DNA from: a virus
Taxonomy: Duplodnaviria > Caudoviricetes
Direction: 5' to 3' (one strand)
Virus record (IMG/VR): IMGVR_UViG_3300007535_000007
Location: 1 to 53,072 of that record
DNA length: 53,072 nucleotides
The notes under the pieces were generated by a model that was given only the letters and a program-made list of their open reading frames with translations, was not told the origin of the DNA and made no database searches. The position numbers were made by a program, and so were the translations under genes. Positions 5,945-51,043 of this stretch are shown here, piece by piece (within the stretch, counting starts at the first letter, position 1; each line of letters starts with the position of its first letter).

Positions 5945-7063
5945 TTATTGGTTAGTTTCATAAACTGACAAAGATTCATTTGTCTGGCGGTGTGTCATTA
6001 TAAAAGTTGTGCGCCTTGATAGCTCTTTCAGCTTGCGACTCCCAGTATAGGTGCATGCCGACCTTACGCCGCCGAGAATATCCTGCAGGGTACCGGCGAC
6101 TGGACCACGATAAGGAACAAGAACTCGCTTACCTTCACTGGCACGATACTCTGCGAGCTCGCCGCTGTGTTTTTCCTGGGCGATCTTCGATGACATGCCG
6201 TAGAATTCCATATACTTCCGCTCCGCGTCTAGTGTGTCGAGAGCAACCCCGTTATTACGAATAACCTCAGATGTCTTATGCCACTCGCTAATAATCTCAC
6301 CACCGCACTCGTCATGTCCAGCCAACATGCCACCGAGCATGACGAAGTCGGCACCAGCACCAAACGCTTTCGCAACGTCGCCGGGGTTGGTGCAACCACC
6401 ATCAGCGATGATGTGACCGCCCAGCCCGTGTGCTGCATCCGCACATTCGATCACCGCCGATAGCTGCGGGTAACCCACACCAGCCTTCTTGCGGGTAGTA
6501 CAAACGCTTCCAGGACCAATCCCAATCTTAATCATATCTGCACCAGCTAGTATCAGCGCCTCGGTCATGTCTGCTGTCACTACGTTGCCTGCAATAAGGA
6601 CTCGATCCACTCCAATTATTTCTCGAAGCTTTTTTACAGATTCTACGAAATTTTCTGTATAACCGTTCGCCACATCGAGACATACATAAGAGACGATCGG
6701 GACGCGATCTAGAATCTTCTGAAGGTTTTCAAAGTCAGATTTAGAGGATCCAGTTGATACGGCAACATCTCCAATCCAATCCGTTGCCGTAAATCCGTTT
6801 GTTGCATTTCCCCATTCCTCTACTGAATAATGTTTATGTATGCAGGTAAACATGCGGTTCTTATGTAATGCCTTTGCCATTTCAAACGTGCCGACGGTGT
6901 CCATGTTTGCTGCCATGATAGGGATTCCGTTGTAGACGGTTGTTGAATGTCGAAATCGAAATTCGCGAAACAGATCAACTTCCTTACGAGATACTAATGT
7001 GCTGCGCTTTGGACGAATGAGCACATCAGTATAATCTAGTTTTGGGTCGTTGTCAATTCGCAT
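5945..7063 (-). CDS. guaC: GMP reductase
   Basis: [21 protein letters not shown] start, [11 protein letters not shown] catalytic loop, YRASEGK; start moved to 7063 after GGAGGA SD. Confidence 0.95.
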
Positions 7064-7449
7064 TGTTCCTCCTGAATCTTCTGCCAAAATTCCTGCCATG
7101 ATGATATGTAATAGCTATTTCCTACCAACAACGAAGTGTATAGGCTTTGACCATAATATGTCAATGGGGTAGGTAGCGTATATTGTATTTTAGAAAGGTC
7201 ATTGCTGATTGCATCGTCATGTTCGATGAGTCGAGAATGAATATAAATAGATCTGCCGCCGTCGGCATAAATCGCTTGAGCATTATAGACGAGCGTCTTA
7301 CCAATGGCTTCGAATAGGTTATCGAAATCGAGTTGTGTAATCAAATAATAACTTGCGTGTTTAGACCATCCACACATCCAATCATAGAATTTTTGATTCA
7401 TTTGACCATTTGTAATAAGAGCAACATCAGCATCAATCAGATAGTTCAT
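7036..7449 (-). CDS. Degenerate HAD/phosphomannomutase-like protein
   Basis: YLIDAD N-terminal DxD-like motif, YLIT; short. Confidence 0.4.
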
Positions 7450-11259: not shown

Positions 11260-11595
11260 TCAAGAGTAACGCGCAGCAAACTCTACTGGGCATTCGTCTG
11301 CAACCATAATGAAAGGGTCTGGCCACTCAACTCCCCATAGGGTTACTTCTTCACCGTCAGAATTTAAAATTGTCATACCACGAGTCCAACGCCCGTGTTC
11401 TACCAAAACCCACTTACCCGGTGCTAGCTCATCGTCATGTACATCAGGACCAATGGCATAAATTTGTGCCCATCGAGGACGAACGCCCTCGCTCTTTCTG
11501 TTGTCGTCTGTCAGAACAATACCGCCTTTAGTGAGCCGCTCGCCCTTCTCCATATTCCAAATCAAAATCTTATTGTTTATTGCTTTCGCTTTCAT
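11260..11595 (-). CDS. GroES-like co-chaperonin (frame open further upstream to an ATG at 11787)
   Basis: KAINNKILI...TKGGIVL...AIGPDV...PGKWVLV; GAGGA SD before 11595. Confidence 0.75.
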   Translation of the reverse strand: MKAKAINNKILIWNMEKGERLTKGGIVLTDDNRKSEGVRPRWAQIYAIGPDVHDDELAPGKWVLVEHGRWTRGMTILNSDGEEVTLWGVEWPDPFIMVADECPVEFAARYS

Positions 11596-11779
11596 CTGTG
11601 CGTGTTCCTCTAGTAAGTATGATAATAGTTCGGGATTAATTTCAGGATCTTTAAGGATCGCATGACACATTGTCGCTTCCCGTTTTTCGGGCGGTAATGA
11701 TTGAAGATCTTTACATAACTGAGTAGTCTTTTCTTTAGATCTATTTTGGGTCTCTAATAGACTGACTATGTATTCTAGA

Positions 11780-12025
11780 CTATTCATTAAAATATCGACG
11801 TGGTATATCTTGTAACCCATCCAAAACCTGTGCAATCGTCTTTTTAGGTAGCTTGGTGCTGTTATGCAACAAAACGACAATTGCTTCGTATTGCAGCCCC
11901 GATGCCATTAACCCTTCCAGCACGGCCTGCATCTTCTTCACATCATCGTGCAAGCGGACAATCGACTCATATTTTTCAAATGTGCCGTCTAGACGCTTTA
12001 CGAATTCTGTCTTCGGTTCAATCAT
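11780..12025 (-). CDS. Hypothetical protein
   Basis: 81-aa ORF in operon. Confidence 0.6.
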   Translation of the reverse strand: MIEPKTEFVKRLDGTFEKYESIVRLHDDVKKMQAVLEGLMASGLQYEAIVVLLHNSTKLPKKTIAQVLDGLQDIPRRYFNE

Positions 12026-12556: not shown

Positions 12557-13087
12557 CTATTTTAAAAATTCCTCAATCGGAAGTTCGTATTTTAAACTAT
12601 TGATTTTATGTACGCCCAACAGATATAGCGTATACGATGCAACGCTGGACCCACGCCCAACGCCCCATATAATATCTTTCTCCCTCATATAATCGACCAG
12701 GTAGGCCAGAAACTGAAGGACTGGAATGAGCTGTCGTTCTTCGAAAAGCAACATTTCAGCCTCCACTCGTTGCCTCTCATCGTCTGTCTTGCAGCGACTA
12801 AGAACCAGGTCACGAATGTCCATCGCCTTATATCTTTCTGGGATCCGCCAATCACCAGCCCGGTCTGCATGGTAGGTCTCGGCGTCCAGGCCATCCTCGA
12901 CCGGTGACCGCACCCTGGTGTCACGACCGAGCACCTTCTCCGACCATCTGTTGAATCTCGCCCTTTCATCTTCATCTACCACAACACAACCATCAAGGCG
13001 ATGCCCTCGGAGACAGGCGTCAACACCCTCCGCGACCCCAATCAGAGCATTCCCATACTGATCGATTTTTACTTTTCGGGCTTCCAT
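12557..13087 (-). CDS. Stand-alone fragment of DNA polymerase III alpha (DnaE-like)
   Basis: WGVGRGSSVASYTLYLLGVHKINSLKYELPIEEFLK matches the DnaE GRGS region; only 176 aa. Confidence 0.8.
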   Translation of the reverse strand: MEARKVKIDQYGNALIGVAEGVDACLRGHRLDGCVVVDEDERARFNRWSEKVLGRDTRVRSPVEDGLDAETYHADRAGDWRIPERYKAMDIRDLVLSRCKTDDERQRVEAEMLLFEERQLIPVLQFLAYLVDYMREKDIIWGVGRGSSVASYTLYLLGVHKINSLKYELPIEEFLK

Positions 13088-25205: not shown

Positions 25206-25847
25206 TTATTTCTGTTCCATTTCCTTGCGAGTGGTGATAATCTTGTCGGCGAGTCCAAGGTCAACTGCTTCTTTGGCAGAAAGGAAAGTATCGTGTCGCA
25301 TCAGATCTAGTAGTTCGTCGTAGGTCTTTCCCTTGCTGTTATGCTTCTCATACAATCTCGTCAATCTCTCATTTACTCTCTTTCCTTCTTCCATGTGCCG
25401 ACGATTATCTTCGAACTCTAACTCCGTGACATACATGCTGCCGCGAGTGGGAGGGATACCGTGACTGATACGATGAATCATTGTGCGAGATTCAGCGAGG
25501 ACATAACGATGTCCTGGCTCACCCGCTTGGGCGATAAAGGAGCCCATGCTTGCGGCTTGCCCCATCGCCATCGTATGGACTGGACAAGAGATGAACTGCA
25601 TCGTGTCGTATACTGCCAACCCTGCTTCTACATGACCGCCTGGGCTGTGAACATAGAGACTGATTGGCTTTTCTGGATTTTCAGATTCTAGATAAAGAAG
25701 CTGCCCGCACACAACATCAGCCATCTCGCTTGTCACTTCGCCCCGAAAGAACACTACTCTCTCTTTTAGCAATCTACTAAAGAGATCATAAGACCGCTCG
25801 CCATTTGAGGACTTTTCGACAACCATCGGGATTAGGTAGTTCTGCAT
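25206..25847 (-). CDS. clpP: ClpP protease
   Basis: [28 protein letters not shown] (Ser), MIH (His), DTFLSA (Asp). Confidence 0.95.
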
Positions 25848-31106: not shown

Positions 31107-31460
31107 TTAGGTATCTTCTTCAATTATTAGTCGAAGCGGAAAACCTTCAGCACGAGCAGTTCTAATACATGTATTCATCTTCTCTTCAGCAATCTCGAAT
31201 TGGTAGATACCAACCACGGCGCTGCCATCTGCATGAATCTTTAGCATAGTTTCAAATGCTTGGTCGTGATCCATATGAAAGACTAGGACTAATAGACCCA
31301 CAACGAAGTCCATCGTTGTCTTATCATCATTTAACATTATCACACGCCAAAGATTTGGCTCGGTTACTTCAACGTCTTCTAATTCTTCTACCGCAACGTC
31401 GCTATCTGGGGAGATGTCTTTCATCTCATTCATAATGTTTTCTAATTCTGCTTCATTCAT
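31107..31460 (-). CDS. clpS: ClpS adaptor
   Basis: WRVIMLNDDKTTMDFVV, MLKIHADGSAVVGIY..EIAE, GFPL. Confidence 0.92.
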   Translation of the reverse strand: MNEAELENIMNEMKDISPDSDVAVEELEDVEVTEPNLWRVIMLNDDKTTMDFVVGLLVLVFHMDHDQAFETMLKIHADGSAVVGIYQFEIAEEKMNTCIRTARAEGFPLRLIIEEDT

Positions 31461-31470
31461 GGTCGCTCCG

Positions 31471-31520
31471 AAAATGCTAGAGTGTGCTAACATTGTAGCA
31501 CACCCTAGCACCTCTGTCAA
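31471..31520 (-). terminator. Terminator-like hairpin after sHSP overlapping a TTGACA-N17-TACAAT promoter for clpS
   Basis: TGCTAGGGTGTGCTA...TAGCACACTCTAGCA followed by TTTT. Confidence 0.65.
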
Positions 31521-31524
31521 AGAA

Positions 31525-31959
31525 TCACGAAGATTTAATTTCGATCTTTCTTGGCAGATTCTCTTCTGGAACATAATGTTCTAGTGAGACAACCAAAAGA
31601 CCATCTCGAAACTTCGCATCCTTCACCTCCCAGTGTTCTGGCAGATAGAAAGACTTTGAAAAGCTTCGTGTAGAGATACCTCGATAGGTATATGTCTTCT
31701 CGTCTTCTTCAGTCTTGTCTGACATCTCTGCGGAAATGGTCAAATGACTTCCTTCTACAGTAATATCAATATCGTCAGGACTAAAGCCGGCAACGGCGAG
31801 CTCAATATCTGAGGAAGTCTCAGATCGCTTCACAATATTATGTGGTGGATAGTTAGTCGTTGCGCGAGAATATCCATCAAAGACTCGATCAAAGTCCACA
31901 AAGTGACGATCGATCCATTCGGCTAGATTGGATGTGGTTATCTTAGGTAGGTTAGTCAT
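31525..31959 (-). CDS. Small heat shock protein (IbpA/Hsp20 family)
   Basis: NYPPHNI, IELAVAGF, YRGISTRSF, DGLLVV. Confidence 0.95.
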   Translation of the reverse strand: MTNLPKITTSNLAEWIDRHFVDFDRVFDGYSRATTNYPPHNIVKRSETSSDIELAVAGFSPDDIDITVEGSHLTISAEMSDKTEEDEKTYTYRGISTRSFSKSFYLPEHWEVKDAKFRDGLLVVSLEHYVPEENLPRKIEIKSS

Positions 31960-31964
31960 AATAG

Positions 31965-32034
31965 TTACTCCTTATTAAGCAAGTAAAGTGGGCACCATGC
32001 CCAATGTAGAGGGAGACCATTCTCCCTCTACATT
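31965..32034 (-). promoter_or_regulatory. ROSE-like RNA thermometer in the sHSP 5' UTR
   Basis: Three hairpins; the last is UUACUUGCUU-AAU-AAGGAGUAA with UUGCU and a bulged G opposite the SD. Confidence 0.75.
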
Positions 32035-32049
32035 TTTATTTAGCATCTA

Positions 32050-33513
32050 TTATAGGAATAGAAGCGCAAAAGCTTTAACAACCAAAAGCGGTGTCATAAC
32101 TTTTCGAGACTGTTCCGACAGATTCGATGTAAACGACTGGCTACGAACATACTCTTCAGCATCATTCACAAGCTGATATGCCTGATTCATTAGCTCAGTG
32201 CGCTGCATAGAAGCCTGATTATACGCCTCTACCAACACAGCGTACTCTTCCATAGCGGCCTGATTCTGACGGAAGCAAGAGATTGTTGCTTGCTTCTGTA
32301 GATCCGTATCAGCACGGGAGCCTTTTGTGTAATCAGGAACATTGCCTGTGCAATCAGAAACCACTGGAGGTTCTGGCGGAACCAACACGATGGTCTGAGA
32401 CTGTGCAAAACGAGCATCTGCCAACTGAAGAAGCTTGCAGTAATACTCCGCATCACCGACAGAAACACCTAGCTCTCTTGCCTGAAAGCTCATTCCACCT
32501 GAACATGCATTCGAGAAAACAGGCGCAACGCTGGCAACCGGCGCTCCACGGAAGTCTGTGCTAGCATCAACCTGAACATTTGTGGTTGAGCCTTCAACAA
32601 CCTGTGTCGAACCTTCAACATTCTGTGTTGAGAGGGCACCTGTGCCTTCTTCACCACCGAAGTTGTTATTGACAGTGACATCGCCTGTAGAAGCGGAAGA
32701 TGTATTATCTACAGCACCTTCTTCTACATTTAGAGAACCACCAGTTGCGGACGAATCACCACCGACCATGCTGTTTGTGTTTGCAACAGCACCTTCATCA
32801 ATAGATGCATTTCCACCCTGTGCAGTTACAGCACCTTCAGCGACATTTAGCGTATTGGTGCCAGTGTTGCTATTCTGTACTGCGCCTTCTGAAATAGTTG
32901 CATTGCCACCTGCTACCGTGTTGGTGTTGCTATTCTGTACTGCGCCTTCTGAAATAGTTGCATTGCCACCTGCGCCACCAGCTCCACCTTCCGCGGTGTT
33001 TGTATTCTGGACTGCACCCTCTGAGACAGAGAAGTTATTGGTGTTGGTGTTTGTGGCTGAATTTTGGACTGCACCCTCTGAGACGGTTAGCGTGTTGGTA
33101 CCTGTTACCGCTCCACTCTCCACGGTCACCGCACCACCCGTTGCAGATGATGTGCTTGGTCCTGTTGATAGTGTTGTATCACCAACATTTACCGAGCCTC
33201 CCGTAGCGTTGGCATTGCCGCCTGTTGCTGTTTGGGTTTGGTTCTGCTGCTGCTGTTGCTGGTTAGTTAGCGTGTTGGTATTGTCAACCGTTGCAGTGGC
33301 ATTTGCAGTTGCTTCGGCAATTCCAATTCCGACACCGTTGCCGCCGCCCTCGCCTTCGCCGCCGTTGCCATTTCCACCTGGTCCACAGGTGCTACCTTGA
33401 CAAACTTCAACTTTTTCGCCGTCAACAAATGTTGTACCGGCTGATACGATCTGAGATGATGTTACCGCAAGAACAACAAGAACTGCTGCTGCGACTTTAA
33501 TAAGAACCTTCAT
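32050..33513 (-). CDS. Secreted low-complexity G/T/N/A-rich repeat protein with Cys-containing C-terminal domain
   Basis: Signal peptide MKVLIKVAAAVLVVLAVTSSQIVSA; imperfect (V/I)xEGAV(Q/T/A/D)N repeats; poly-Q. Confidence 0.8.
   Translation of the reverse strand: MKVLIKVAAAVLVVLAVTSSQIVSAGTTFVDGEKVEVCQGSTCGPGGNGNGGEGEGGGNGVGIGIAEATANATATVDNTNTLTNQQQQQQNQTQTATGGNANATGGSVNVGDTTLSTGPSTSSATGGAVTVESGAVTGTNTLTVSEGAVQNSATNTNTNNFSVSEGAVQNTNTAEGGAGGAGGNATISEGAVQNSNTNTVAGGNATISEGAVQNSNTGTNTLNVAEGAVTAQGGNASIDEGAVANTNSMVGGDSSATGGSLNVEEGAVDNTSSASTGDVTVNNNFGGEEGTGALSTQNVEGSTQVVEGSTTNVQVDASTDFRGAPVASVAPVFSNACSGGMSFQARELGVSVGDAEYYCKLLQLADARFAQSQTIVLVPPEPPVVSDCTGNVPDYTKGSRADTDLQKQATISCFRQNQAAMEEYAVLVEAYNQASMQRTELMNQAYQLVNDAEEYVRSQSFTSNLSEQSRKVMTPLLVVKAFALLFL
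32864..32973. repeat. 50-bp identical tandem repeat with 60-bp period inside the repeat-protein gene
   Basis: 32864-32913 equals 32924-32973 (encodes AGGNATISEGAVQNSNT). Confidence 0.9.
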
Positions 33514-33538
33514 ATATTTAACTCCTTATATGATAATA

Positions 33539-33640
33539 AGAAGTTACCAGGCAGAATTTACAACCATATGACATGCACTTAGGTTAATTCTTTGCGACCC
33601 TCATCTTTCGATAAAGTTAGCCGTTTAACAAGTATCTTCT
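33539..33640 (-). ncRNA. c-di-GMP-I (GEMM-I) riboswitch
   Basis: GGCUAAC-UUUAUC-GAAA-GAUGAG-GGUCGCAAAG-AAUU..CCUAAG..UAUGG..AAUUCUGCC: GAAA tetraloop, canonical CCUAAG/UAUGG receptor, GCAAAG junction. Confidence 0.88.
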
Positions 33641-33750: not shown

Positions 33751-34035
33751 TTAGTACAGGCGTTTACTTTTCTGTTGCTCTTCTAAAGTCTTAAGCCATC
33801 GCTTACGAGCAATCGCCTTCTCCTTCTTTCTGCGCACAGATGGCTTTTCATAAAACTCTCTTTCTCGCAGTTCACGAAGAATGCCAGAATCTTGGACCTT
33901 CTTGTTAAAAATCTTCATAGCCTTTTCAAAACCAAATGGGCGATCCTGAACTTCAACCTTAAGCCCTGGCACTAGATCACGAGGATTAAATTCATTCTTG
34001 CCTCGGTGTGTGTATCTTTCTTTTCTACTCATCAT
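33751..34035 (-). CDS. rpsU: Phage ribosomal protein bS21
   Basis: [12 protein letters not shown]...[20 protein letters not shown]. Confidence 0.9.
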
Positions 34036-35215
34036 TCATCCTTTTCTTTTCGTAATGGTAATCTAATCTTCCGTTCTCTCCAATAACAACTCTCTCTAAT
34101 CCTTCCTTACGAAGTCGAGGAAGCCGAAATTGAACATGCAACAATACCTTTTCAAGTATAGTCTGCAATCCTCTTGCTCCTGTCTTTTCTTTAGAAGACT
34201 GATGAGCAACGCCGCGCACAAATTCAGGTAAGAATTCGAGGTCCACATTGTCTAGTGAAAAGAGTCCTCGATACTGGTCAATTAAACAATTCTTAGGTGT
34301 AGTTAGTACCTTAACCAGCATATCCTCAGTAAGATCATGCGTAGCGACAACAATCGGAAAACGACCAACAAATTCTGGAATCAAACCAAAGCTCATTAAG
34401 TTCTCTGATGTCGCCTCTGATAATAACATAGCTTCGGATGATTTGTCAAGTACCGCCCCAAATCCGATTGTGGAATGTTCGCGCTTACTTTCCTTGATAA
34501 TGTCAGCCAATCCCACAAAAGCTCCGCCGGCGATAAACAAGATGTCTTTTGTTTCGAAATCTTCTCCGGACGAAAGTTTGATTTTTGTTCCTTCTACAAG
34601 TTTGAGTAATGCCTGTTGAACACCTTCTCCCGAAACATCTCGATTGACTGTTGCGCTCTCGCTCTTACGCGATTTCTTATCGATCTCATCAATGTATATA
34701 ATGCCTTTCTGCGCCAATTCGATGTCTCCATCGGCGGCGTGAACTAGTCTGTCAATCATATTTTCAACGTCTTCACCGACATAACCAGATTCAGTAAGAC
34801 TAGTGGCATCGGTTTGAACAAACGGAAGATTAAGAGTTTTCGCCACTGTGCTAACAAGTAGCGTCTTACCAGTTCCACTCGGTCCAATAAGAAGAACATT
34901 CGATTTCTTTAGTTCTGTATCTGAGACAACTGGATTGTTGATGCGCTTGTAATGATTATAGATTGCTACGGATAATGTCTCTTTTGCGAGTGATTGCTCG
35001 ATAATATACTGATCGAGATACTCTTTGATTTCTTCAGGGGTTGGCAGGTCATCAATTTTTTTGATGTTTTTCTTGTTATTATGAATAACATTATATCCGA
35101 GTTCAATGCATTCATCACAAATATATACCGTAGCCGGACCTTGATCTGGGCCTGCTAATACCTTTTTAACTTCTTTTCTGCCCTTGCTACAAAAATTGCA
35201 AGTGATATTATTCAT
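34025..35215 (-). CDS. clpX: ClpX ATPase
   Basis: CNFC..ICDEC Zn domain, [25 protein letters not shown] loop, TGARGL. Confidence 0.95.
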
Positions 35216-35225
35216 CTATCTCTCT

Positions 35226-36194
35226 TTATCCGCGATTGTCTGTTGCTGATAGTCGGTGCCGGTCAGGTGCCTTAGGTTTCGTAACTAACTCGGCAGTTGA
35301 GTTTGGATTAATTTTTACTTGTTTCATTGTAGCGGTTTCTGAAGGCATTTGCAAATCTTGAATAATTTCTTCATCCGTAGATTCGACATCAGTTGATGGA
35401 CCTTTCGATGAAGGAGGCGGATCGGTCTTCGTGGGAGGCGACTTTTTCTTAGAAGCCCTATTCATTAGAGAATAGTTTGCAGCCATGAGGAGGAGAATTG
35501 CCATCGGATCAAAAACGAATATAAATGCAATGATAGCCCATCGAACAGCATCTTCTAGATTATCTTCAGAATTTCCATAAACAATCTCAGCGATATATTT
35601 GATAGGACCAACTTCCATTTCAAGAGACCGAAGCTCGTTGCCGAGTTGAAGTTTCTCATCTTCATACTGGTCAATGCGATTCTGTGCCTCATCGATCGTC
35701 GTTGCCAACAGGTCTCTCTGCTCTTGTTGTCCTTCTCGTACTGCCCTAGCTCCGTCATCACCACTAATCTTGTCATATTCGATTAGCGTCTGAACCGTTT
35801 CATCGAGTTGAGCAATAACCGTTTCTGCATCTGCAATTCGAGCTTCTTCTCTATTAATTCTCTGATCTAGTCTTTCGATCTGTGCTGTGTTGTTTGTGAC
35901 CGGGGCTGTTTGTTCTATGTGTGCTTTTGATAGCAGTCCAAAGATACCCATACTGGTGAGCAGCATCGCAATCAATACCAGAGGCAGCATCGCATATTTG
36001 ATTTTCGTGGGCTCTGTCCAGTTGCGGTAGATCCAGCTTACGCCGACAACTTTACCGAGTTCGATAACAGAACCCATTACAAGAGCATGGATCGGCAATC
36101 CTGAGAAGATTGCCACAATACCAAAGATGGCAAAGACTGCGGCTGTTCCAGCCATAGCCAATGCGGTCAATAGAGTGATGATTCCAAATAGCAT
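35226..36194 (-). CDS. Multi-TM coiled-coil membrane protein of T4-like phages
   Basis: LTSMGIFGLLSKAH, EVGPIKYIAE, IFVFDPMAILLL. Confidence 0.75.
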   Translation of the reverse strand: MLFGIITLLTALAMAGTAAVFAIFGIVAIFSGLPIHALVMGSVIELGKVVGVSWIYRNWTEPTKIKYAMLPLVLIAMLLTSMGIFGLLSKAHIEQTAPVTNNTAQIERLDQRINREEARIADAETVIAQLDETVQTLIEYDKISGDDGARAVREGQQEQRDLLATTIDEAQNRIDQYEDEKLQLGNELRSLEMEVGPIKYIAEIVYGNSEDNLEDAVRWAIIAFIFVFDPMAILLLMAANYSLMNRASKKKSPPTKTDPPPSSKGPSTDVESTDEEIIQDLQMPSETATMKQVKINPNSTAELVTKPKAPDRHRLSATDNRG

Positions 36195-36201
36195 ATATAA
36201 G

Positions 36202-36501
36202 CTATTTATCAATAGTTGTGATGCAATGGTTCTGTCTTAATTCCGTGTAGAATGCTTGTTTAGGAGTAATATACGCGAATTGAAGATCTTGATTTCCGAT
36301 GATAATATAATGATTCGGTAGCTTCTCACGAAAGGCATCTCGAATTTTATTCAGGTAAGCCCTCTGAGATTCAGTTGTAAAATCCCGGTCCAGTTTACAG
36401 TTGATATATAGAACTGGCAGGTTTCCCTCTTGAGGGAATTCTGTAATCTCGATCGGTATCTCTTCTCTTTCTTCGTTATCAAATTTTTTCATCTTCATCA
36501 C
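36202..36501 (-). CDS. Hypothetical protein
   Basis: 99-aa ORF; PKQAFYTELRQ. Confidence 0.55.
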   Translation of the reverse strand: MMKMKKFDNEEREEIPIEITEFPQEGNLPVLYINCKLDRDFTTESQRAYLNKIRDAFREKLPNHYIIIGNQDLQFAYITPKQAFYTELRQNHCITTIDK

Positions 36502-36638: not shown

Positions 36639-37220
36639 TCATTCGCTCATCAATCGTATCGCACGATTCGGACGACTATAACGAGCGCAGCTCTTCTTCG
36701 TCTCCCACCATTCGACCTCGCCAACCTTCACACCGATGCGCGCCATCTTCGGAGTCACCAGGTCATACACCCACTTCGAGAGATTCTCGGAGGTGGGTAT
36801 AAAGTCAACAACGAAGAAGCTTTCGTAATACTCGTACTCTGGGGTACCTACTGGAATACCAGTTTCTTCCATATTAATCAGATAACCTGCGCAATGATCG
36901 GTTTCTGGAACAAAGACCGGTGTAAGACTTTTCGGCAGATGAACCAGTTTTTCAAATAGAGGATCATTCTGATCAAGAATGAACTTGTGGTCAACTGTCT
37001 CGTCGAAGAACTTTTTCAACCAGCTAAGATGCAGGAAATCTGTTACCATTCCTTGCGGATTAAGATTGTCACCTTGAAGGTGAATATGAACTTCTGCTTC
37101 GTGCCCGTGTAGGTGTCGGCATACGCATTGCCTTTCAAGAGCAAATTCCTTCTCTAACTGCTGCACCCAGACGCGATGGCCATATGCAAAGTTAAATTCT
37201 TTACTGATCTTCCAGCTCAT
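36639..37220 (-). CDS. queD: 6-carboxytetrahydropterin synthase (QueD/PTPS)
   Basis: FAYGHR, CRHLHGH, GMVTDF, DHKF, PTSENL, WWET. Confidence 0.88.
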   Translation of the reverse strand: MSWKISKEFNFAYGHRVWVQQLEKEFALERQCVCRHLHGHEAEVHIHLQGDNLNPQGMVTDFLHLSWLKKFFDETVDHKFILDQNDPLFEKLVHLPKSLTPVFVPETDHCAGYLINMEETGIPVGTPEYEYYESFFVVDFIPTSENLSKWVYDLVTPKMARIGVKVGEVEWWETKKSCARYSRPNRAIRLMSE

Positions 37221-37437
37221 CTTCTTCTCCTTCTTCGTGCTCATCTAAGAAATCTTCCAGTAAATAACCGGCTGCAATTTCCTTAAGCGCAAGCACCGTG
37301 TTACCGCTACCTTCTCTAGGAACTAGAGGCACAGCCCCATTTTCCAACATTTTTGCTCGTTGTCCGGCAATCAGAATCATTGCGAACTGATTACTGTCAC
37401 AAGTCTTCAACGCGCCTTCGATAATACCTCTAGCCAT
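37201..37437 (-). CDS. rpoZ: RNA polymerase omega subunit-like protein
   Basis: MAR...NQFAMILIAGQRAKML..G..PLVP....TVLALKEIAAG aligns with RpoZ. Confidence 0.8.
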   Translation of the reverse strand: MARGIIEGALKTCDSNQFAMILIAGQRAKMLENGAVPLVPREGSGNTVLALKEIAAGYLLEDFLDEHEEGEEDELEDQ

Positions 37438-37441
37438 TTCC

Positions 37442-38125
37442 TTAACCTCTCTTTCTTGATAGTGCCATGAATTCTGCTCTTGTTGCGGGATCGTCTTTGA
37501 ACGCCCCGCCCATCTTGCTCGTTACCGTACTGGAATCCATATCTTCGATACCGCGAGCCTTGACGCAATGATGGTCGGCTTCTATCACCACCGCGACATT
37601 TTCTGTATTTAAGATATGTGATAGAGCATGATAAATCTGTGCGGTTAGCCTTTCCTGTACCTGCGGCCTTCGTGAGAAATAATTAACCACTCTATTCAGC
37701 TTACTGAGGCCGACTACCTTACCATTTGGAATATAGCCGACAGTTGCTTTGCCTACGATATTCTGAAAATGATGCTCGCAACAAGACATAACACTAATGT
37801 TCTTTTCTACCAACATCTCATCATAGTTGAACTTATTTTCAACAACAGTGATCTTAGGAAAGTTCTCAGGCTTCAACCCGTAGAAGGTTTCGTTAAGATA
37901 CATCTTTGCCACGCGACCCGGCGTATCATGTAGACTATCATCAGAAAGATCAAGACCGAGAACATTCATAATCTCTCGAAAATGAACCGCAACAGTTTCT
38001 AATTTTTCTTCTACTGCTCTATCGTTGTATTCGTTCCCTACCAACGGTGTTTCAACACCTAAATCTTTCAATTTCTCATGTACTTCTAGACCTAGCCTAG
38101 AATCCGTGTTTCCAATTTTTGCCAT
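37442..38125 (-). CDS. folE: GTP cyclohydrolase I
   Basis: DTPGRVAKMY, CEHH, GLSKLNR, QVQERLT, HHCVKARG. Confidence 0.95.
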   Translation of the reverse strand: MAKIGNTDSRLGLEVHEKLKDLGVETPLVGNEYNDRAVEEKLETVAVHFREIMNVLGLDLSDDSLHDTPGRVAKMYLNETFYGLKPENFPKITVVENKFNYDEMLVEKNISVMSCCEHHFQNIVGKATVGYIPNGKVVGLSKLNRVVNYFSRRPQVQERLTAQIYHALSHILNTENVAVVIEADHHCVKARGIEDMDSSTVTSKMGGAFKDDPATRAEFMALSRKRG

Positions 38126-47395: not shown

Positions 47396-50300
47396 TTATT
47401 CCAGATTTAATTTCTTAAGTATTCGCCAATTACCAGTAATTGTCTTTCCTGCATCGGCATCATTGAACCAAAGTCTGCCAGAACATGGAAGGATGTTTAC
47501 TTCGCCAGGTCCTGGTGGGGTTACTGCGTCATTCAATAACACCGCCGGAACTCCGTCTAATAATACATTTAAATCTAGAGTAAGAATACGATGAGAGATC
47601 AACCTCGAAAAATTGATATCTTTGGCACCGGTGCTCACTCCATCACCAACCTCCACATATCTTCTATTGACGGCGTAATCAATTTCGCCATCATATAATG
47701 TCCATCCTCCCATATAGCCATTGGAGCTTGTCATGTTATGCCACATTGCAATACCTAGATCTTGCCCAGTCGCCGTCGGGAAGGTATATTCAACAACTCC
47801 GTTGATGAGGAACTCGATAGTTGTTCCTGTTCGCCTAAATGCAAAAATATCATTTTCAGCGCCGTCGGCTTTATTAATTGTTGCAGCCAACGATCCACCC
47901 AGAGCGCCAGTATATACAGTAACCGTATATTCTAGATCTTCAGTCACATTATTTACTCCGGTTCTTTGATATCTAACATGAAATTGATGACCTGCATCAC
48001 CCGTTGTTAGAGCTTTTGGATTAGCCTCAATCGATGCCCAATCTACGAGACCAAGTCGAGGAATGTATCCCGAACCATCCTGAACCATCTTAAAACGAAA
48101 TTCGAAGTCACCTTCTAGTTTGTTTTCCATATAGATTGAATTAGTTAATCCGCGCCCGGCAATAATTTTTCCAGGTTCTCCCCATGCAGGCGGCGTGGTC
48201 AAGCCTTCTTCTGTACTTGTCCAACCAGGAAATGCTAGTGCTAGTGGTTCCGCTACCCTCGCGCCTAGATCTACGGCAGGGACTGTGCCAGGCGTAAAGT
48301 CTGTGCCTGTGCCGGTGGCATGCATATAGTTATATGTTGTCTGAGCAAATGCAGTGGCATCATCTAGTAGAATACCATCATAGACATATACATCATAATA
48401 TTCACCCACTACCAACGGATCAGTGCCACCGTTGTCATCAAATCTGATTTGAAGAGTGTCTAATAGATCTTCGTCAGTGGCATGTGTGATTTTTGAGCCT
48501 GCATGATTTCTTTCCCATCCTGTTCCGTTCCAGCCCCATTGTTCAAACCAAGGGATTGCATTTTCAGATGAGACCGAGCTATTGCCATAGAATGTAAGGA
48601 AATAATAAGGTTGACTATTGCTGCCGGCACATAAGAAGATGCCGTTGCCGACGTGTCCGATCATTGTGTTAGATACGATGTTTCGACCTCTCAAAACTGT
48701 TGTGTGGCCGTGGGTTAGATTCACGCCGCTCGTGTTTTCATATACTTTCGGAACAGCACTATTAAATTGATCCCATGTTCGAATCGAAATCGGTGGCATG
48801 TGAGAACCGGTAGACTGGTTGGTTATACCGGTCAGAGCAGCTCCTGTATAACCAACCATATAGGTTGTATCTGTAGATTCGTCATGGTATGTTAAATTAC
48901 CAACAATACCTAAATTATTCTTTTCTGTATCGCCGGTGGTCACGTTCCCAGCGTTCTCAGAAGAAGCTCCAAATGAGATTCTTCCGTTTCCAAACCAATT
49001 GCTTGTTACCCAAACAAAAGCGGTGCTGGTATCATATATCCCCGAAATGAACCATTCAGTATTACTGAGTGGAGTCGCGCCGTTATGGAAATAATTTCGG
49101 AATTTTAGATGACCGCCAAGCCTAGAGCTAAGATTAATGCGTGTTTGATTTGACGCAGGACTTGCCCCTGCTTCGGACCACCAAAATGCTTGATTGTTGT
49201 TTGATTCAACATCAAACGCATCGGGCGCGACTATCATCAATTGACCATCAACACTATATGGATTAACAATTAGGCCTAATATATTCGAGGGACCTGGCGT
49301 CCCGCTTGTATAATCTGTTAGTAAGAATTGTGGGTCGGTCGTTTCATCATATAATGTCCAAGTAGTACCTTGGTCGGTAGACTTGCCTAAATATGCAACC
49401 GAATCTGTGACATCATGAAATATAGCCCACACATCGCCAGTGGCTCTATTTACAGTCACTCCTCGGCAGGAGTTTGGGTTAGTAATCCCGGCAGGTGTGA
49501 TTTGTGTGATTGCGGTTACGGGTCCTTGAGACGGCCTTTCAATCTTCCATAGGCCTGTATTTTCACACGCCGCAAAAATATCTCCGGTCCTTTCGCCTCC
49601 CGAATACGCAGGTCCTAGCTGAAGCAACCCCGTCGCGGGCAAAGGAATGGCACTGTCAGCGGTAATATTTTCAAATTCGCCATTCACATGCATCACCGTG
49701 ATGCCGTCATCTGCGTATGTTAGAAATTCAGGCCATAGATATTGTTGAAATCTGCGTTCAGCTTGTCCGAACCGTCGAGAATCAGTTCCTTCTGGACCAA
49801 CATAAGTTCCAAAACCCGGTGGTCGCATAGTATTAATCGTCATAGGCACAGGTTGATATTGAGCATAGTTCCATCCTGTCCCGCGTCGCCTCCGAATTTT
49901 ATACTCAGCAGCACCAACTAATCCGCCAGTAGTGATCTCAACTCGATAATGATGAACAAACGGTTCTCTATTTACGGTGTCTGCCCATGTTCCTGGGTCT
50001 GTCACAGTAAGGCTTGCCAGAGAACTTCCCTGATTATCAATATCTAGAAACGGTCTGCGGAAATTGCCTGTATCTGCTTGTCTATGAAATAGATTTTGTA
50101 CAGCCGAACCTGTTCCTTTCGATACGGGCTGCGATGTTATGAAGTTGACCGACCCTCTTTTGACACTAAATGCTCGAAAAGGTAACCCATGATAATTCGT
50201 GACATTTGCAGATGAAGCAGGAATGCCTACAGAATACCGATGCCCGAAGAGCATATTGATGTGTGACGAGTGTGCAGATTGTCTTACTGACCCGCCGCTA

Positions 50301-51043
50301 TAGATAGATGGTGCGTTAAATCGTCCTGACGAATCGCTCTTTGTTCCTTCACAATATAAATGTGTAGGATAATAACTCCAGTCCTCTGGTTCTGATATGG
50401 AACTAGCGGTTGACGGATAAATTGTGGCTTGCTGCCCAAAAGTGTTGGCCATGCTCCGAGACGCATCTACCTTTCCATCCGCGACAGGCGATATATCAAC
50501 AAAGATTCGATAAAAAACATCTAGTAACTCGTCGGTTTCCTGAATACATGGGGTTGTGAGGCTCACAGAAGCCAGGTGCCCTTGCCGCGCGCCTTGGAAG
50601 TCAGCTCCGCTCTGAGAAAGTCCTTCGCTGCTGACAACAACTGATCGTATATATCTTGTAGCCGACGGAACGCTGAATCTAGTTTGTGTGGTCCAAAAAC
50701 CGTTGCCAGGCGGGTCTGTATTAATATCGCCACCTGTCCAAAATGGCTGAGCTTCTTGGAGTCCAGAAACCCACGTCAACGTGCTCGTGCTATTCTCCCC
50801 ATGTATAGTTGTATTTAATATGTTTGAAGTGGGTATGTGACTTACCCACGCCGCAACTGCATAGGTCGCACCGGTAAGAGTTGATGTATTAAGATACCGT
50901 TGATTGAGCATGTGCTTATCATGATACTTGTATTGAATATTATTCTGCTCTTCTTGAACAGATACTATTTCACCCGGGACCCACTCGTTATTTTCATCGA
51001 GTATCGCCTTATATTTAACCAGTGTAAAAATACCTTTGACCAT
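47396..51043 (-). CDS. Large virion structural protein (tail/baseplate-associated, beta-rich)
   Basis: 1215 aa, Thr/Gly/Ser-rich, Asp-box KSTDQGTTW, CTAAATA late-type promoter. Confidence 0.65.
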   Translation of the reverse strand: MVKGIFTLVKYKAILDENNEWVPGEIVSVQEEQNNIQYKYHDKHMLNQRYLNTSTLTGATYAVAAWVSHIPTSNILNTTIHGENSTSTLTWVSGLQEAQPFWTGGDINTDPPGNGFWTTQTRFSVPSATRYIRSVVVSSEGLSQSGADFQGARQGHLASVSLTTPCIQETDELLDVFYRIFVDISPVADGKVDASRSMANTFGQQATIYPSTASSISEPEDWSYYPTHLYCEGTKSDSSGRFNAPSIYSGGSVRQSAHSSHINMLFGHRYSVGIPASSANVTNYHGLPFRAFSVKRGSVNFITSQPVSKGTGSAVQNLFHRQADTGNFRRPFLDIDNQGSSLASLTVTDPGTWADTVNREPFVHHYRVEITTGGLVGAAEYKIRRRRGTGWNYAQYQPVPMTINTMRPPGFGTYVGPEGTDSRRFGQAERRFQQYLWPEFLTYADDGITVMHVNGEFENITADSAIPLPATGLLQLGPAYSGGERTGDIFAACENTGLWKIERPSQGPVTAITQITPAGITNPNSCRGVTVNRATGDVWAIFHDVTDSVAYLGKSTDQGTTWTLYDETTDPQFLLTDYTSGTPGPSNILGLIVNPYSVDGQLMIVAPDAFDVESNNNQAFWWSEAGASPASNQTRINLSSRLGGHLKFRNYFHNGATPLSNTEWFISGIYDTSTAFVWVTSNWFGNGRISFGASSENAGNVTTGDTEKNNLGIVGNLTYHDESTDTTYMVGYTGAALTGITNQSTGSHMPPISIRTWDQFNSAVPKVYENTSGVNLTHGHTTVLRGRNIVSNTMIGHVGNGIFLCAGSNSQPYYFLTFYGNSSVSSENAIPWFEQWGWNGTGWERNHAGSKITHATDEDLLDTLQIRFDDNGGTDPLVVGEYYDVYVYDGILLDDATAFAQTTYNYMHATGTGTDFTPGTVPAVDLGARVAEPLALAFPGWTSTEEGLTTPPAWGEPGKIIAGRGLTNSIYMENKLEGDFEFRFKMVQDGSGYIPRLGLVDWASIEANPKALTTGDAGHQFHVRYQRTGVNNVTEDLEYTVTVYTGALGGSLAATINKADGAENDIFAFRRTGTTIEFLINGVVEYTFPTATGQDLGIAMWHNMTSSNGYMGGWTLYDGEIDYAVNRRYVEVGDGVSTGAKDINFSRLISHRILTLDLNVLLDGVPAVLLNDAVTPPGPGEVNILPCSGRLWFNDADAGKTITGNWRILKKLNLE

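Follow-up and report, generated by a model that had tools for sequence, protein, structure and literature searches.

A candidate exported protein behind a predicted c-di-GMP-I aptamer in a putative soil jumbo phage

The stretch of DNA considered here, which we call the window throughout, comprises all 53,072 nt of the viral record IMGVR_UViG_3300007535_000007. As this record is rated 14% complete, the phage genome from which it comes would run to several hundred kilobases. A 1215-residue protein encoded in the window has named relatives among GenBank phages only in Xanthomonas phage XacN1 (384.7 kb) and a Paraglaciecola virus, to which it is about 25% identical, and the window sequence is found in 13 soil metagenome runs from 13 studies; no RNA run is among the runs listed as carrying it. 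Our subject is an open reading frame (ORF) on the minus strand (32050..33513) which starts with ATG and encodes a 487-residue protein, P0001, and which is preceded on the same strand by a match to the class I cyclic di-GMP (c-di-GMP) riboswitch aptamer. The initial annotation had read this gene as a riboswitch-controlled, secreted polymer with a beta-solenoid or functional-amyloid-like core. We describe below a protein that very probably is exported, that belongs to an unstudied family with a conserved C-terminal domain, and in which the repeats are probably not the functional part.

The gene and its product

The ORF and the parts of its product are as follows, with the basis of each assignment in brackets.

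32050..33513, minus strand: ORF for the putative exported protein P0001 (ORF call, translation, homologue alignment)
33439..33513, minus strand: predicted signal peptide, residues 1-25 (read off the translation, with a family-wide heuristic)
33139..33438, minus strand: residues 26-125, with Cys38/Cys43, a Gly-rich tract, GVGIGI, an N/Q tract and ATGGNANATGGSV (alignments)
32674..33138, minus strand: residues 126-280, eight irregular [E/S]GAV units in an acidic, G/T/N/A-rich low-complexity region (alignment, model, composition)
32864..32973, minus strand: exact 50-nt duplication, 32864-32913 and 32924-32973, its copies offset by 60 nt and so in frame (sequence self-comparison)
32053..32673, minus strand: conserved C-terminal domain, residues 281-487 (profile, alignment, AlphaFold2 model)

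Every protein feature named in the initial annotation is present in P0001: the signal peptide, the CQGSTC pair, the Gly-rich linker, the N/Q tract, the units, the duplication and the Cys-containing C-terminus. The N-terminus reads MKVLIKVAAAVLVVLAVTSSQIVSA up to the likely cleavage site and GT after it, that is, a basic n-region and a hydrophobic core with V-S-A ahead of the cut, as judged by a rule of thumb from the sequence rather than by SignalP. Because this start is signal-peptide-like and 114 of the 124 full-length members of the wider family described below also pass a simple rule, we consider P0001 to be very probably Sec-exported, in line with the earlier claim of a Sec-type signal. 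Beyond the signal peptide come the C38-QGST-C43 pair, then GPGGNGNGGEGEGGGNGVGIGI and then NQQQQQQNQTQ, with the Gly-rich tract ending in GVGIGI, and this layout of residues 26-125 recurs throughout the family. Four further cysteines (337, 359, 388 and 413) lie in the C-terminal part, giving six in total, and they may well be joined in disulfides. A plus-strand ORF of 272 residues (32582-33400) overlaps the low-complexity region and was rejected as its antisense shadow; all homologues align in the minus-strand frame.

The C-terminal domain and the repeat stretch

A word-indexed search returned six close homologues of P0001 (57-69% identity) and four distant ones, all unnamed. In the alignment of these ten, conservation is seen in the N-terminal layout and over ~200 residues at the C-terminus but not in the middle, and it is because the C-terminal Cys-loop/helical domain is the conserved part of the protein that we regard it as probably the working part. 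The domain opens with a VNNNFGGE...VEGS lead-in, followed by PVASVAPVFSNAC337...C359 around a small beta-hairpin, a helix, an insert with C388 and C413, a very long helix, and a hydrophobic tail.

A profile of the domain (A2), built from the window sequence and nine metagenome loci whose relatives are 28-41% identical over A2, was compared with 1.84 billion protein representatives and matched 181 of them at E ≤ 1e-3, 87 at ≤ 1e-10 and 20 at ≤ 1e-30; the close relatives P0004 and P0008 match it at E 3e-29 and 7e-28. Among the best 150 of the 181, the match reaches the C-terminus, or nearly so, in almost every protein. The family, which is unnamed and includes P0003-P0160, is seen almost only in metagenomes: ten of its members are singleton clusters without informative names, tblastn with P0001, the homologue from locus L008 and P0047 gave no match in GenBank phages, nor did megablast with 20 kb of the window, and a scan of 185,579 cellular species genomes with two peptide patterns found one locus (L014), absence elsewhere in that scan being weak evidence. 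In essence, these matches define a sizeable and wholly unstudied family of putatively exported phage proteins, with 181 cluster representatives and with distant members in cultured jumbo phages.

In a 130-sequence alignment of the family (A4), the only invariant columns are C337 and C359. By simple heuristics, 94 of the 124 full-length members have an even number of cysteines and 120 of 130 have a hydrophobic stretch in the last six residues, typically TLGLL-like; a QGQ-type tract occurs in 54 of 130. P0001 fits this layout of a signal-peptide-like start, a G/N/S/T/Q low-complexity middle and hydrophobic last six residues. It is the second longest member, the family median being 228 residues, and its subfamily carries an extra insert of ~70 residues with two cysteines (C388, C413) as well as a longer hydrophobic tail.

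The AlphaFold2 model of the C-terminal 198 residues, made with the 130 sequences, is confident, with a mean predicted local distance difference test score (pLDDT) of 80.6 and a predicted template modelling score of 0.60. In its numbering, a beta-hairpin (E51-55/E60-64) is flanked by the two invariant cysteines and followed by a helix (68-84), a loop, and a helix of 87 residues (111-197) that runs into the hydrophobic tail. Foldseek with this model gave no match at E ≤ 0.001 in either PDB or BFVD; VIA-align with the full model returned generic long-helix proteins at a best Z of 7.8; and the ESM Atlas returned just two viral hypothetical clusters with a score of 0.75, below a meaningful level. 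P0001 had no match in PDB sequences or in PHROGs (none of the latter at E ≤ 1). The members of the family fall under no curated one; two or three of 69 had weak matches to a single tetratricopeptide repeat (TPR) or to the FimV C-terminus.

Distant relatives from cultured Ralstonia jumbo phages belong to PHROG 20531 (annotated as function unknown), namely ORF070 of phiRSL1 (YP_001949946.1) and RsoM2USA_147 (AVH85075.1). Thirteen of the 69 family members match this group, with a best E of 1e-13. The relation of P0001 itself is indirect: it has no PHROG 20531 match and pairwise BLASTP against the Ralstonia-phage proteins is not significant, while hhalign of the C-terminal profile with ORF070 gives 76% probability (E 2.2e-5, 57 columns). 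Both kinds of protein have a signal peptide, an early Cys pair, a Gly-rich tract, GVGIGIG, Asn-rich and QGQ tracts, and a PV..A.AP...C...Q..FG.S...C loop followed by helices, and ORF070 shares with P0001 the identical 13-residue ATGGNANATGGSV. The Ralstonia-phage proteins differ in lacking the hydrophobic TLGLL-type tail and in having extra cysteines. They differ also in what follows the gene: RsoM2USA_147 is followed by an HD_4-domain gene and not by a gene of the OmpA type found beside other family members (see below), and no OmpA annotation is seen downstream of phiRSL1 ORF070, judging from the annotations of its neighbours. The gene directly after RsoM2USA_147, RsoM2USA gene 146 (L026:4474-5112), has HD_4 as PF13328 at E 6e-10, which we take to be the HD type of (p)ppGpp hydrolases.

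Between the conserved ends of P0001 lie the eight [E/S]GAV units, which begin at residues 133, 146, 165, 189, 209, 226, 240 and 265 and are thus spaced by 13, 19, 24, 20, 17, 14 and 25 residues. The exact 50-nt duplication noted in the initial annotation was found at 32864-32913 and 32924-32973; it encodes GGNATISEGAVQNSNT twice (residues 181-197 and 201-217), and none of the ten aligned homologues has the duplicated unit. Units of the [ESDG]GAV type number eight in P0001 and 5, 5, 4, 2, 2, 2, 0, 1, 0 and 1 in the ten homologues. The eight-unit stretch is a lineage-specific expansion by unit duplication, and since the units are few or absent in relatives, the conserved function of the family cannot rest on them.

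It had also been claimed that the repeat number is still changing. The difference between zero to five units in relatives and eight in P0001 speaks for this, but the soil runs give no variant that would catch the change under way: all four runs (2017 and 2021; short-read contigs) show the same two-copy junction, on a unitig of 32884-32953 in runs X1, X3 and X5 and of 32884-32973 in X7, and there is no insertion, deletion or joint variant at the repeat in these runs, whose short-read contigs break there. The collapsed repeat unitig has 2.2-2.8 times the depth of its flanks, which is compatible with a third copy or with none. The contigs of the soil runs show few differences in the gene, and the aptamer is identical where covered.

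We consider the repeat stretch to be probably an acidic, fast-evolving and flexible low-complexity spacer and not the core of a solenoid or amyloid. Residues 26-330 contain 28 Asp/Glu against 2 Lys/Arg, a net charge of about -26 over 305 residues, and spacers throughout the family are rich in G/N/S/T, with a net negative charge in 81%. The initial annotation had drawn the opposite conclusion, namely that the region folds as a beta-solenoid or functional-amyloid-like core and that the secreted protein polymerises outside the cell as a matrix, aggregation factor or ice-binding surface. We judge this to be unlikely on account of the irregular spacing (13-25 residues, against the fixed periods of solenoids and of curli/Fap repeats), the lack of conservation of the units, the 28:2 charge ratio, the low model confidence, and the lack of a match to any amyloid or solenoid family. 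The only Pfam entry for P0001 at E ≤ 1 is B_solenoid_ydck, the YdcK-repeat family, which is non-significant (E 0.33, 11.5 bits against a cut-off of 30); no curli, Fap or ice-binding family appears at that threshold, and no recognised Pfam family of the curli/Fap export machinery was found among the 74 ORFs scanned.

What speaks for such a polymer is the N/Q/T/G-rich composition of eight similar units, together with the habit of bacterial c-di-GMP riboswitches, which often precede genes for secreted fibres or adhesins. AlphaFold2, proposed with Foldseek in the initial annotation as a check on the fold, gives it something as well. In the full-length model (11-sequence alignment; mean pLDDT 46, with 70-89 in the helical C-terminus), residues 21-330 score 24-39 in 10-residue blocks, yet short low-confidence strand pairs (E136-142, E160-163, E168-174, on to E229-232; pLDDT < 40) are found at most units. 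With so few sequences the fold test is weak and keeps a beta-rich polymer alive.

The leader and its predicted aptamer

The elements predicted around the gene are as follows.

33547..33632, minus strand: c-di-GMP-I (GEMM-I, RF01051) aptamer, full model, 1-87 of 87 (Rfam covariance-model match)
33519..33546, minus strand: predicted 11-bp hairpin UAACUUCUUAU / AUAAGGAGUUA burying the Shine-Dalgarno (SD) sequence AAGGAG at 33522-33527 (RNA folding)
33734-33705, minus strand: promoter candidate TTGACA-18-TACAAT, 11/12 matches (sigma-70 consensus scan, pattern only)
33681-33653, minus strand: promoter candidate TTGTCT-17-TATTAT, 9/12 matches (sigma-70 consensus scan, pattern only)
~33697-33668, minus strand: 12-bp hairpin with a U-rich 3' arm, between the promoter candidates (fold)
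31989..32034, minus strand: terminator-like element that follows the stop codon, made up of a 14-bp palindrome (32003-32034) and, beyond it, a GC hairpin (32003-31989) with a partial U tract

The earlier description of the gene as riboswitch-controlled is upheld to the extent that an aptamer match lies directly ahead of it, control of the gene being a prediction from that position. The match to RF01051 is marginal, its 35.9 bits lying just above the gathering score of 35 (E 0.002 when the whole window is searched, 1.3e-5 when the 351-nt intergenic stretch is), and the aptamer ends 34 nt upstream of the ORF. In the cmscan alignment it keeps the GAAA tetraloop of the first hairpin, CCUAAG...UAUGG in the second hairpin, the CGCAAAG junction, and the G just 5' of the first GC pair; one pair of the distal stem is non-standard. 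In terms of the Vc2 structures, CCUAAG...UAUGG would be the 11-nt tetraloop receptor, CGCAAAG the region of the intercalating adenine, and the G the position that separates binders of c-di-GMP from those of cyclic GMP-AMP.

The SD hairpin begins right after the last base of the aptamer, with a pairing probability of 0.86-1.0 for the SD bases, and no intrinsic terminator is found from the aptamer to the start codon. Both promoter candidates fall in the intergenic region between the gene for ribosomal protein S21 and that for P0001 (33653..33734, minus strand), and the hairpin between them could be the terminator of the S21 gene. The gene thus looks like a unit of its own, made up of promoter-like sites, aptamer, hairpin-buried ribosome-binding site, ORF and terminator, and because it looks self-contained behind the aptamer and the buried site, its translation is probably tied to the c-di-GMP level of the host.

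Five strong c-di-GMP-I aptamers (75-83 bits) were also seen in other IMG/VR contigs (L018, L021, L023, L024 and L025), where each precedes a small gene for a CheY-like receiver domain.

Gene neighbourhood, proposed role and comparison with known systems

Writing X for the gene of a family member, the order membrane protein-ClpX-S21-X-OmpA-Hsp20-ClpS is kept in three related loci (L002, L008 and L016). The end of the X gene is known in 14 loci, 13 of which have at least 800 nt downstream, and in 12 of these 13 an OmpA motif lies within ~520 nt on the same strand (L012 being without it); L006, L007 and L008 are one phage. These counts rest on distant relatives, the only ones that a metagenome scan returned; a scan of viral contigs gave none of the close homologues P0003-P0008. 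Pfam OmpA (PF00691) was confirmed in nine loci. The pair occurs in two unrelated contexts as well, the 184-kb viral contig L017 and the GC-rich L014, so that a secreted OmpA-family gene directly follows X in three genomic contexts (L002:5137-7126, L008:3018-4778, L016:6296-8098, L017:6497-8082 and L014:4976-6503). Together, X and OmpA look like an undescribed two-gene phage envelope module. PF00691 has no match anywhere in the 53-kb window at E ≤ 0.1, the window being only 14% of the genome. A complex prediction for the C-terminal domain of the L008 homologue with its OmpA neighbour scored 0.00 against a mark of 0.32, which gives no verdict and counts neither way.

The L014 contig (9 kb) comes from a metagenome-assembled genome labelled Candidatus Altiarchaeales, and beside its phage-type X-OmpA pair it encodes a Pup-like protein (PF05639, E 8.8e-12), both of which are odd for that archaeal label; the contig may be viral or mis-binned.

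The signal peptide, the even numbers of cysteines and the OmpA-type neighbour of relatives point to a site of action in the infected cell's periplasm or cell wall. Our preferred reading, to which we give a probability of about 0.5, is that P0001 is an exported, envelope-acting accessory protein of an XacN1-like soil jumbo phage, with an expanded spacer and c-di-GMP-linked translation. The accessory gene would yield a Sec-exported protein whose working part would be the C-terminal domain, with its disulfide-bracketed beta-hairpin, helices and hydrophobic tail; the G/T/N/Q/A repeat stretch would serve as a spacer, enlarged in this lineage by unit duplication; the peptidoglycan-binding, OmpA-type neighbour of relatives suggests that it would act at the periplasm or cell wall; and the c-di-GMP level of the host would set its translation through the leader of aptamer and SD hairpin. 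Its role might then be to alter the envelope of the infected cell in the course of a long jumbo-phage infection, by superinfection exclusion or by stabilising the envelope or wall. For Ralstonia jumbo phages, latent periods of 150 to over 270 min are given in PMC8504454.

Several observations weigh against this. Export of P0001 is judged from sequence rules alone, and nothing specific in Pfam, NCBIfam, PDB sequences, Foldseek (PDB, BFVD) or VIA-align ties the domain to a function. The OmpA partner is absent from the window, so the cell-wall argument is borrowed from distant relatives (28-41% identity over A2), and a low pLDDT obtained with 11 aligned sequences does little to establish a disordered spacer. 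The aptamer is just 0.9 bits over the Rfam cut-off, against 75-83 bits for the five other viral-contig aptamers, and it was not found upstream of relatives, that is, in none of the 12 loci L002-L013 at E ≤ 0.1 and none of the four loci L014-L017 at E ≤ 1, a search that took in loci of distant relatives and left out P0003-P0008. Furthermore, enforcing the aptamer makes no difference to the predicted SD hairpin, and the constrained folds contain no mutually exclusive pairing and so no evident mechanism or direction of switching.

A bolder version of the envelope-acting reading is one that we put forward only tentatively, as possible but doubtful. In it, a virulent-type jumbo phage would read host c-di-GMP by its own riboswitch so as to time the export of an envelope-remodelling protein, which might, for example, seal or mask sessile, high-c-di-GMP cells against superinfection or reinforce the wall during a long latent period. 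The protein would then stand for a new class of phage periplasmic effector, a conserved Cys-loop/helical head borne on an expandable acidic spacer and usually partnered by an OmpA-type wall anchor of the phage.

Beyond the polymer weighed above, the same features could be arranged differently, into a lysis-related envelope spanner analogous to a spanin, which would hold on to the inner membrane by its N-terminus, reach the outer layers with a long periplasmic part, and work with a cell-wall-bound partner at lysis. We think this very improbable. The N-terminal hydrophobic segment, the periplasmic cysteines, the 87-residue helix, the hydrophobic C-terminal tail and the peptidoglycan-binding partner gene of relatives would all suit it, but the N-terminus has the look of one that is cleaved (V-S-A, with A-x-A-like sites closing the hydrophobic region in most family members), P0001 has no lipobox, no holin, endolysin or lipoprotein partner was found among the 74 ORFs scanned, and a riboswitch-gated unit of its own amid proteostasis genes is unlike the usual lysis cassette. 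Least credible is a place in the virion as an ordinary fibre or decoration protein that contains low-complexity repeats. In its favour, tail fibres often have low-complexity Gly/Thr/Asn repeats, weak matches to tail-fibre PHROGs were returned for one of 69 family members through its low-complexity part, and sizeable genes that may be structural (47396-51043 and one for a PKD-domain protein) are located 14 kb away. Against it, the family as a whole keeps a Sec signal peptide, whereas the virions of tailed phages are assembled in the cytoplasm; the gene lies between S21/ClpX and Hsp20/ClpS in several phages; and PMC8504454, whose analysis took in abundant gel bands only, does not name the relative RsoM2USA_147 among the virion proteins.

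The wider gene content of the window comprises PhoH, a GMP-reductase/IMPDH-type enzyme, a clamp-loader-like ATPase, MazG, dCMP deaminase, ClpP, ClpS, Hsp20, ribosomal protein S21, ClpX, QueD, GTP cyclohydrolase I (FolE), ThyA and ribonucleotide reductase. ClpP, ClpS, Hsp20, S21, ClpX and a Cpn10-like protein form a proteostasis and translation set (25206-25847, 31107-31959, 33751-35215 and 11260-11880), to which related contigs add FtsH (L013:3116-4903 and a 598-residue ORF in L002). Directly upstream of clpX, a 328-residue multi-pass membrane protein with a long coiled-coil middle is encoded at 35226-36212 (minus strand); its position is kept in L002, L008 and L016, and its only match is a weak one to DUF4407 in the L008 copy. 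The adjoining QueD and GTP cyclohydrolase I genes (36639-38125), together with the GMP-reductase/IMPDH-type gene elsewhere (5945-7099), suggest synthesis of a 7-deazaguanine precursor, possibly for DNA modification. Finally, the match of a 176-residue ORF at 12557-13087 (minus strand) to the DNA polymerase III alpha NTPase domain (260 positions) is confined to positions 19-94, and the ORF may be part of a split polymerase gene or of one interrupted by an intron or intein.

Among known systems, curli CsgA/CsgB, Fap and the TxT ice-binding beta-solenoids resemble P0001 in having a Sec signal and an N/Q/G/T-rich repetitive sequence. P0001 differs from them by its irregular period, its strongly negative charge and its unconserved units, and it shows neither such a Pfam family at E ≤ 1 nor dedicated export genes, nor a model of more than low confidence.

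Similar in arrangement are the periplasmic pairs MotX-MotY (of the Vibrio flagellar T-ring), CpoB(YbgF)-Pal and YfiR-YfiB, in each of which a small secreted helical or TPR-like protein goes with an OmpA-type peptidoglycan binder. The family is alike in that a secreted, Cys-containing helical-hairpin protein is encoded beside a secreted OmpA-domain protein (12 of 13 loci), and the likeness is one of analogy only: there is no sequence or fold match to these pairs, the pair here is phage-encoded, the long low-complexity spacer has no counterpart in them, and P0001 itself has no OmpA neighbour in the window.

As for the leader, McCown et al. (2017, PMC5473149) describe riboswitches as rare in phage genomes, and the only two c-di-GMP-I cases named there are both in Clostridioides difficile prophages. 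Full-text literature searches, from whose coverage subscription journals are largely absent, turned up neither a jumbo-phage c-di-GMP riboswitch nor any account of the P0001 protein family. The match described here resembles known RF01051 riboswitches in its full length, in its conserved tetraloop, receptor and junction nucleotides, and in its place 5' of an exported-protein gene on the same strand; it differs in its score and in an SD-hairpin platform that does not visibly compete with the aptamer. The host also differs, being a jumbo phage with virulent-type gene content where the phage cases named in PMC5473149 are prophages, and so does the cargo, which is a CheY-like receiver gene for the five other viral-contig aptamers and a putative exported protein here. 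What looks new is that a predicted c-di-GMP riboswitch lies ahead of a putative exported-protein gene in a jumbo phage, and on an unstudied protein family; a working switch would offer a clear case of a large phage of lytic type sensing a signal of bacterial lifestyle.

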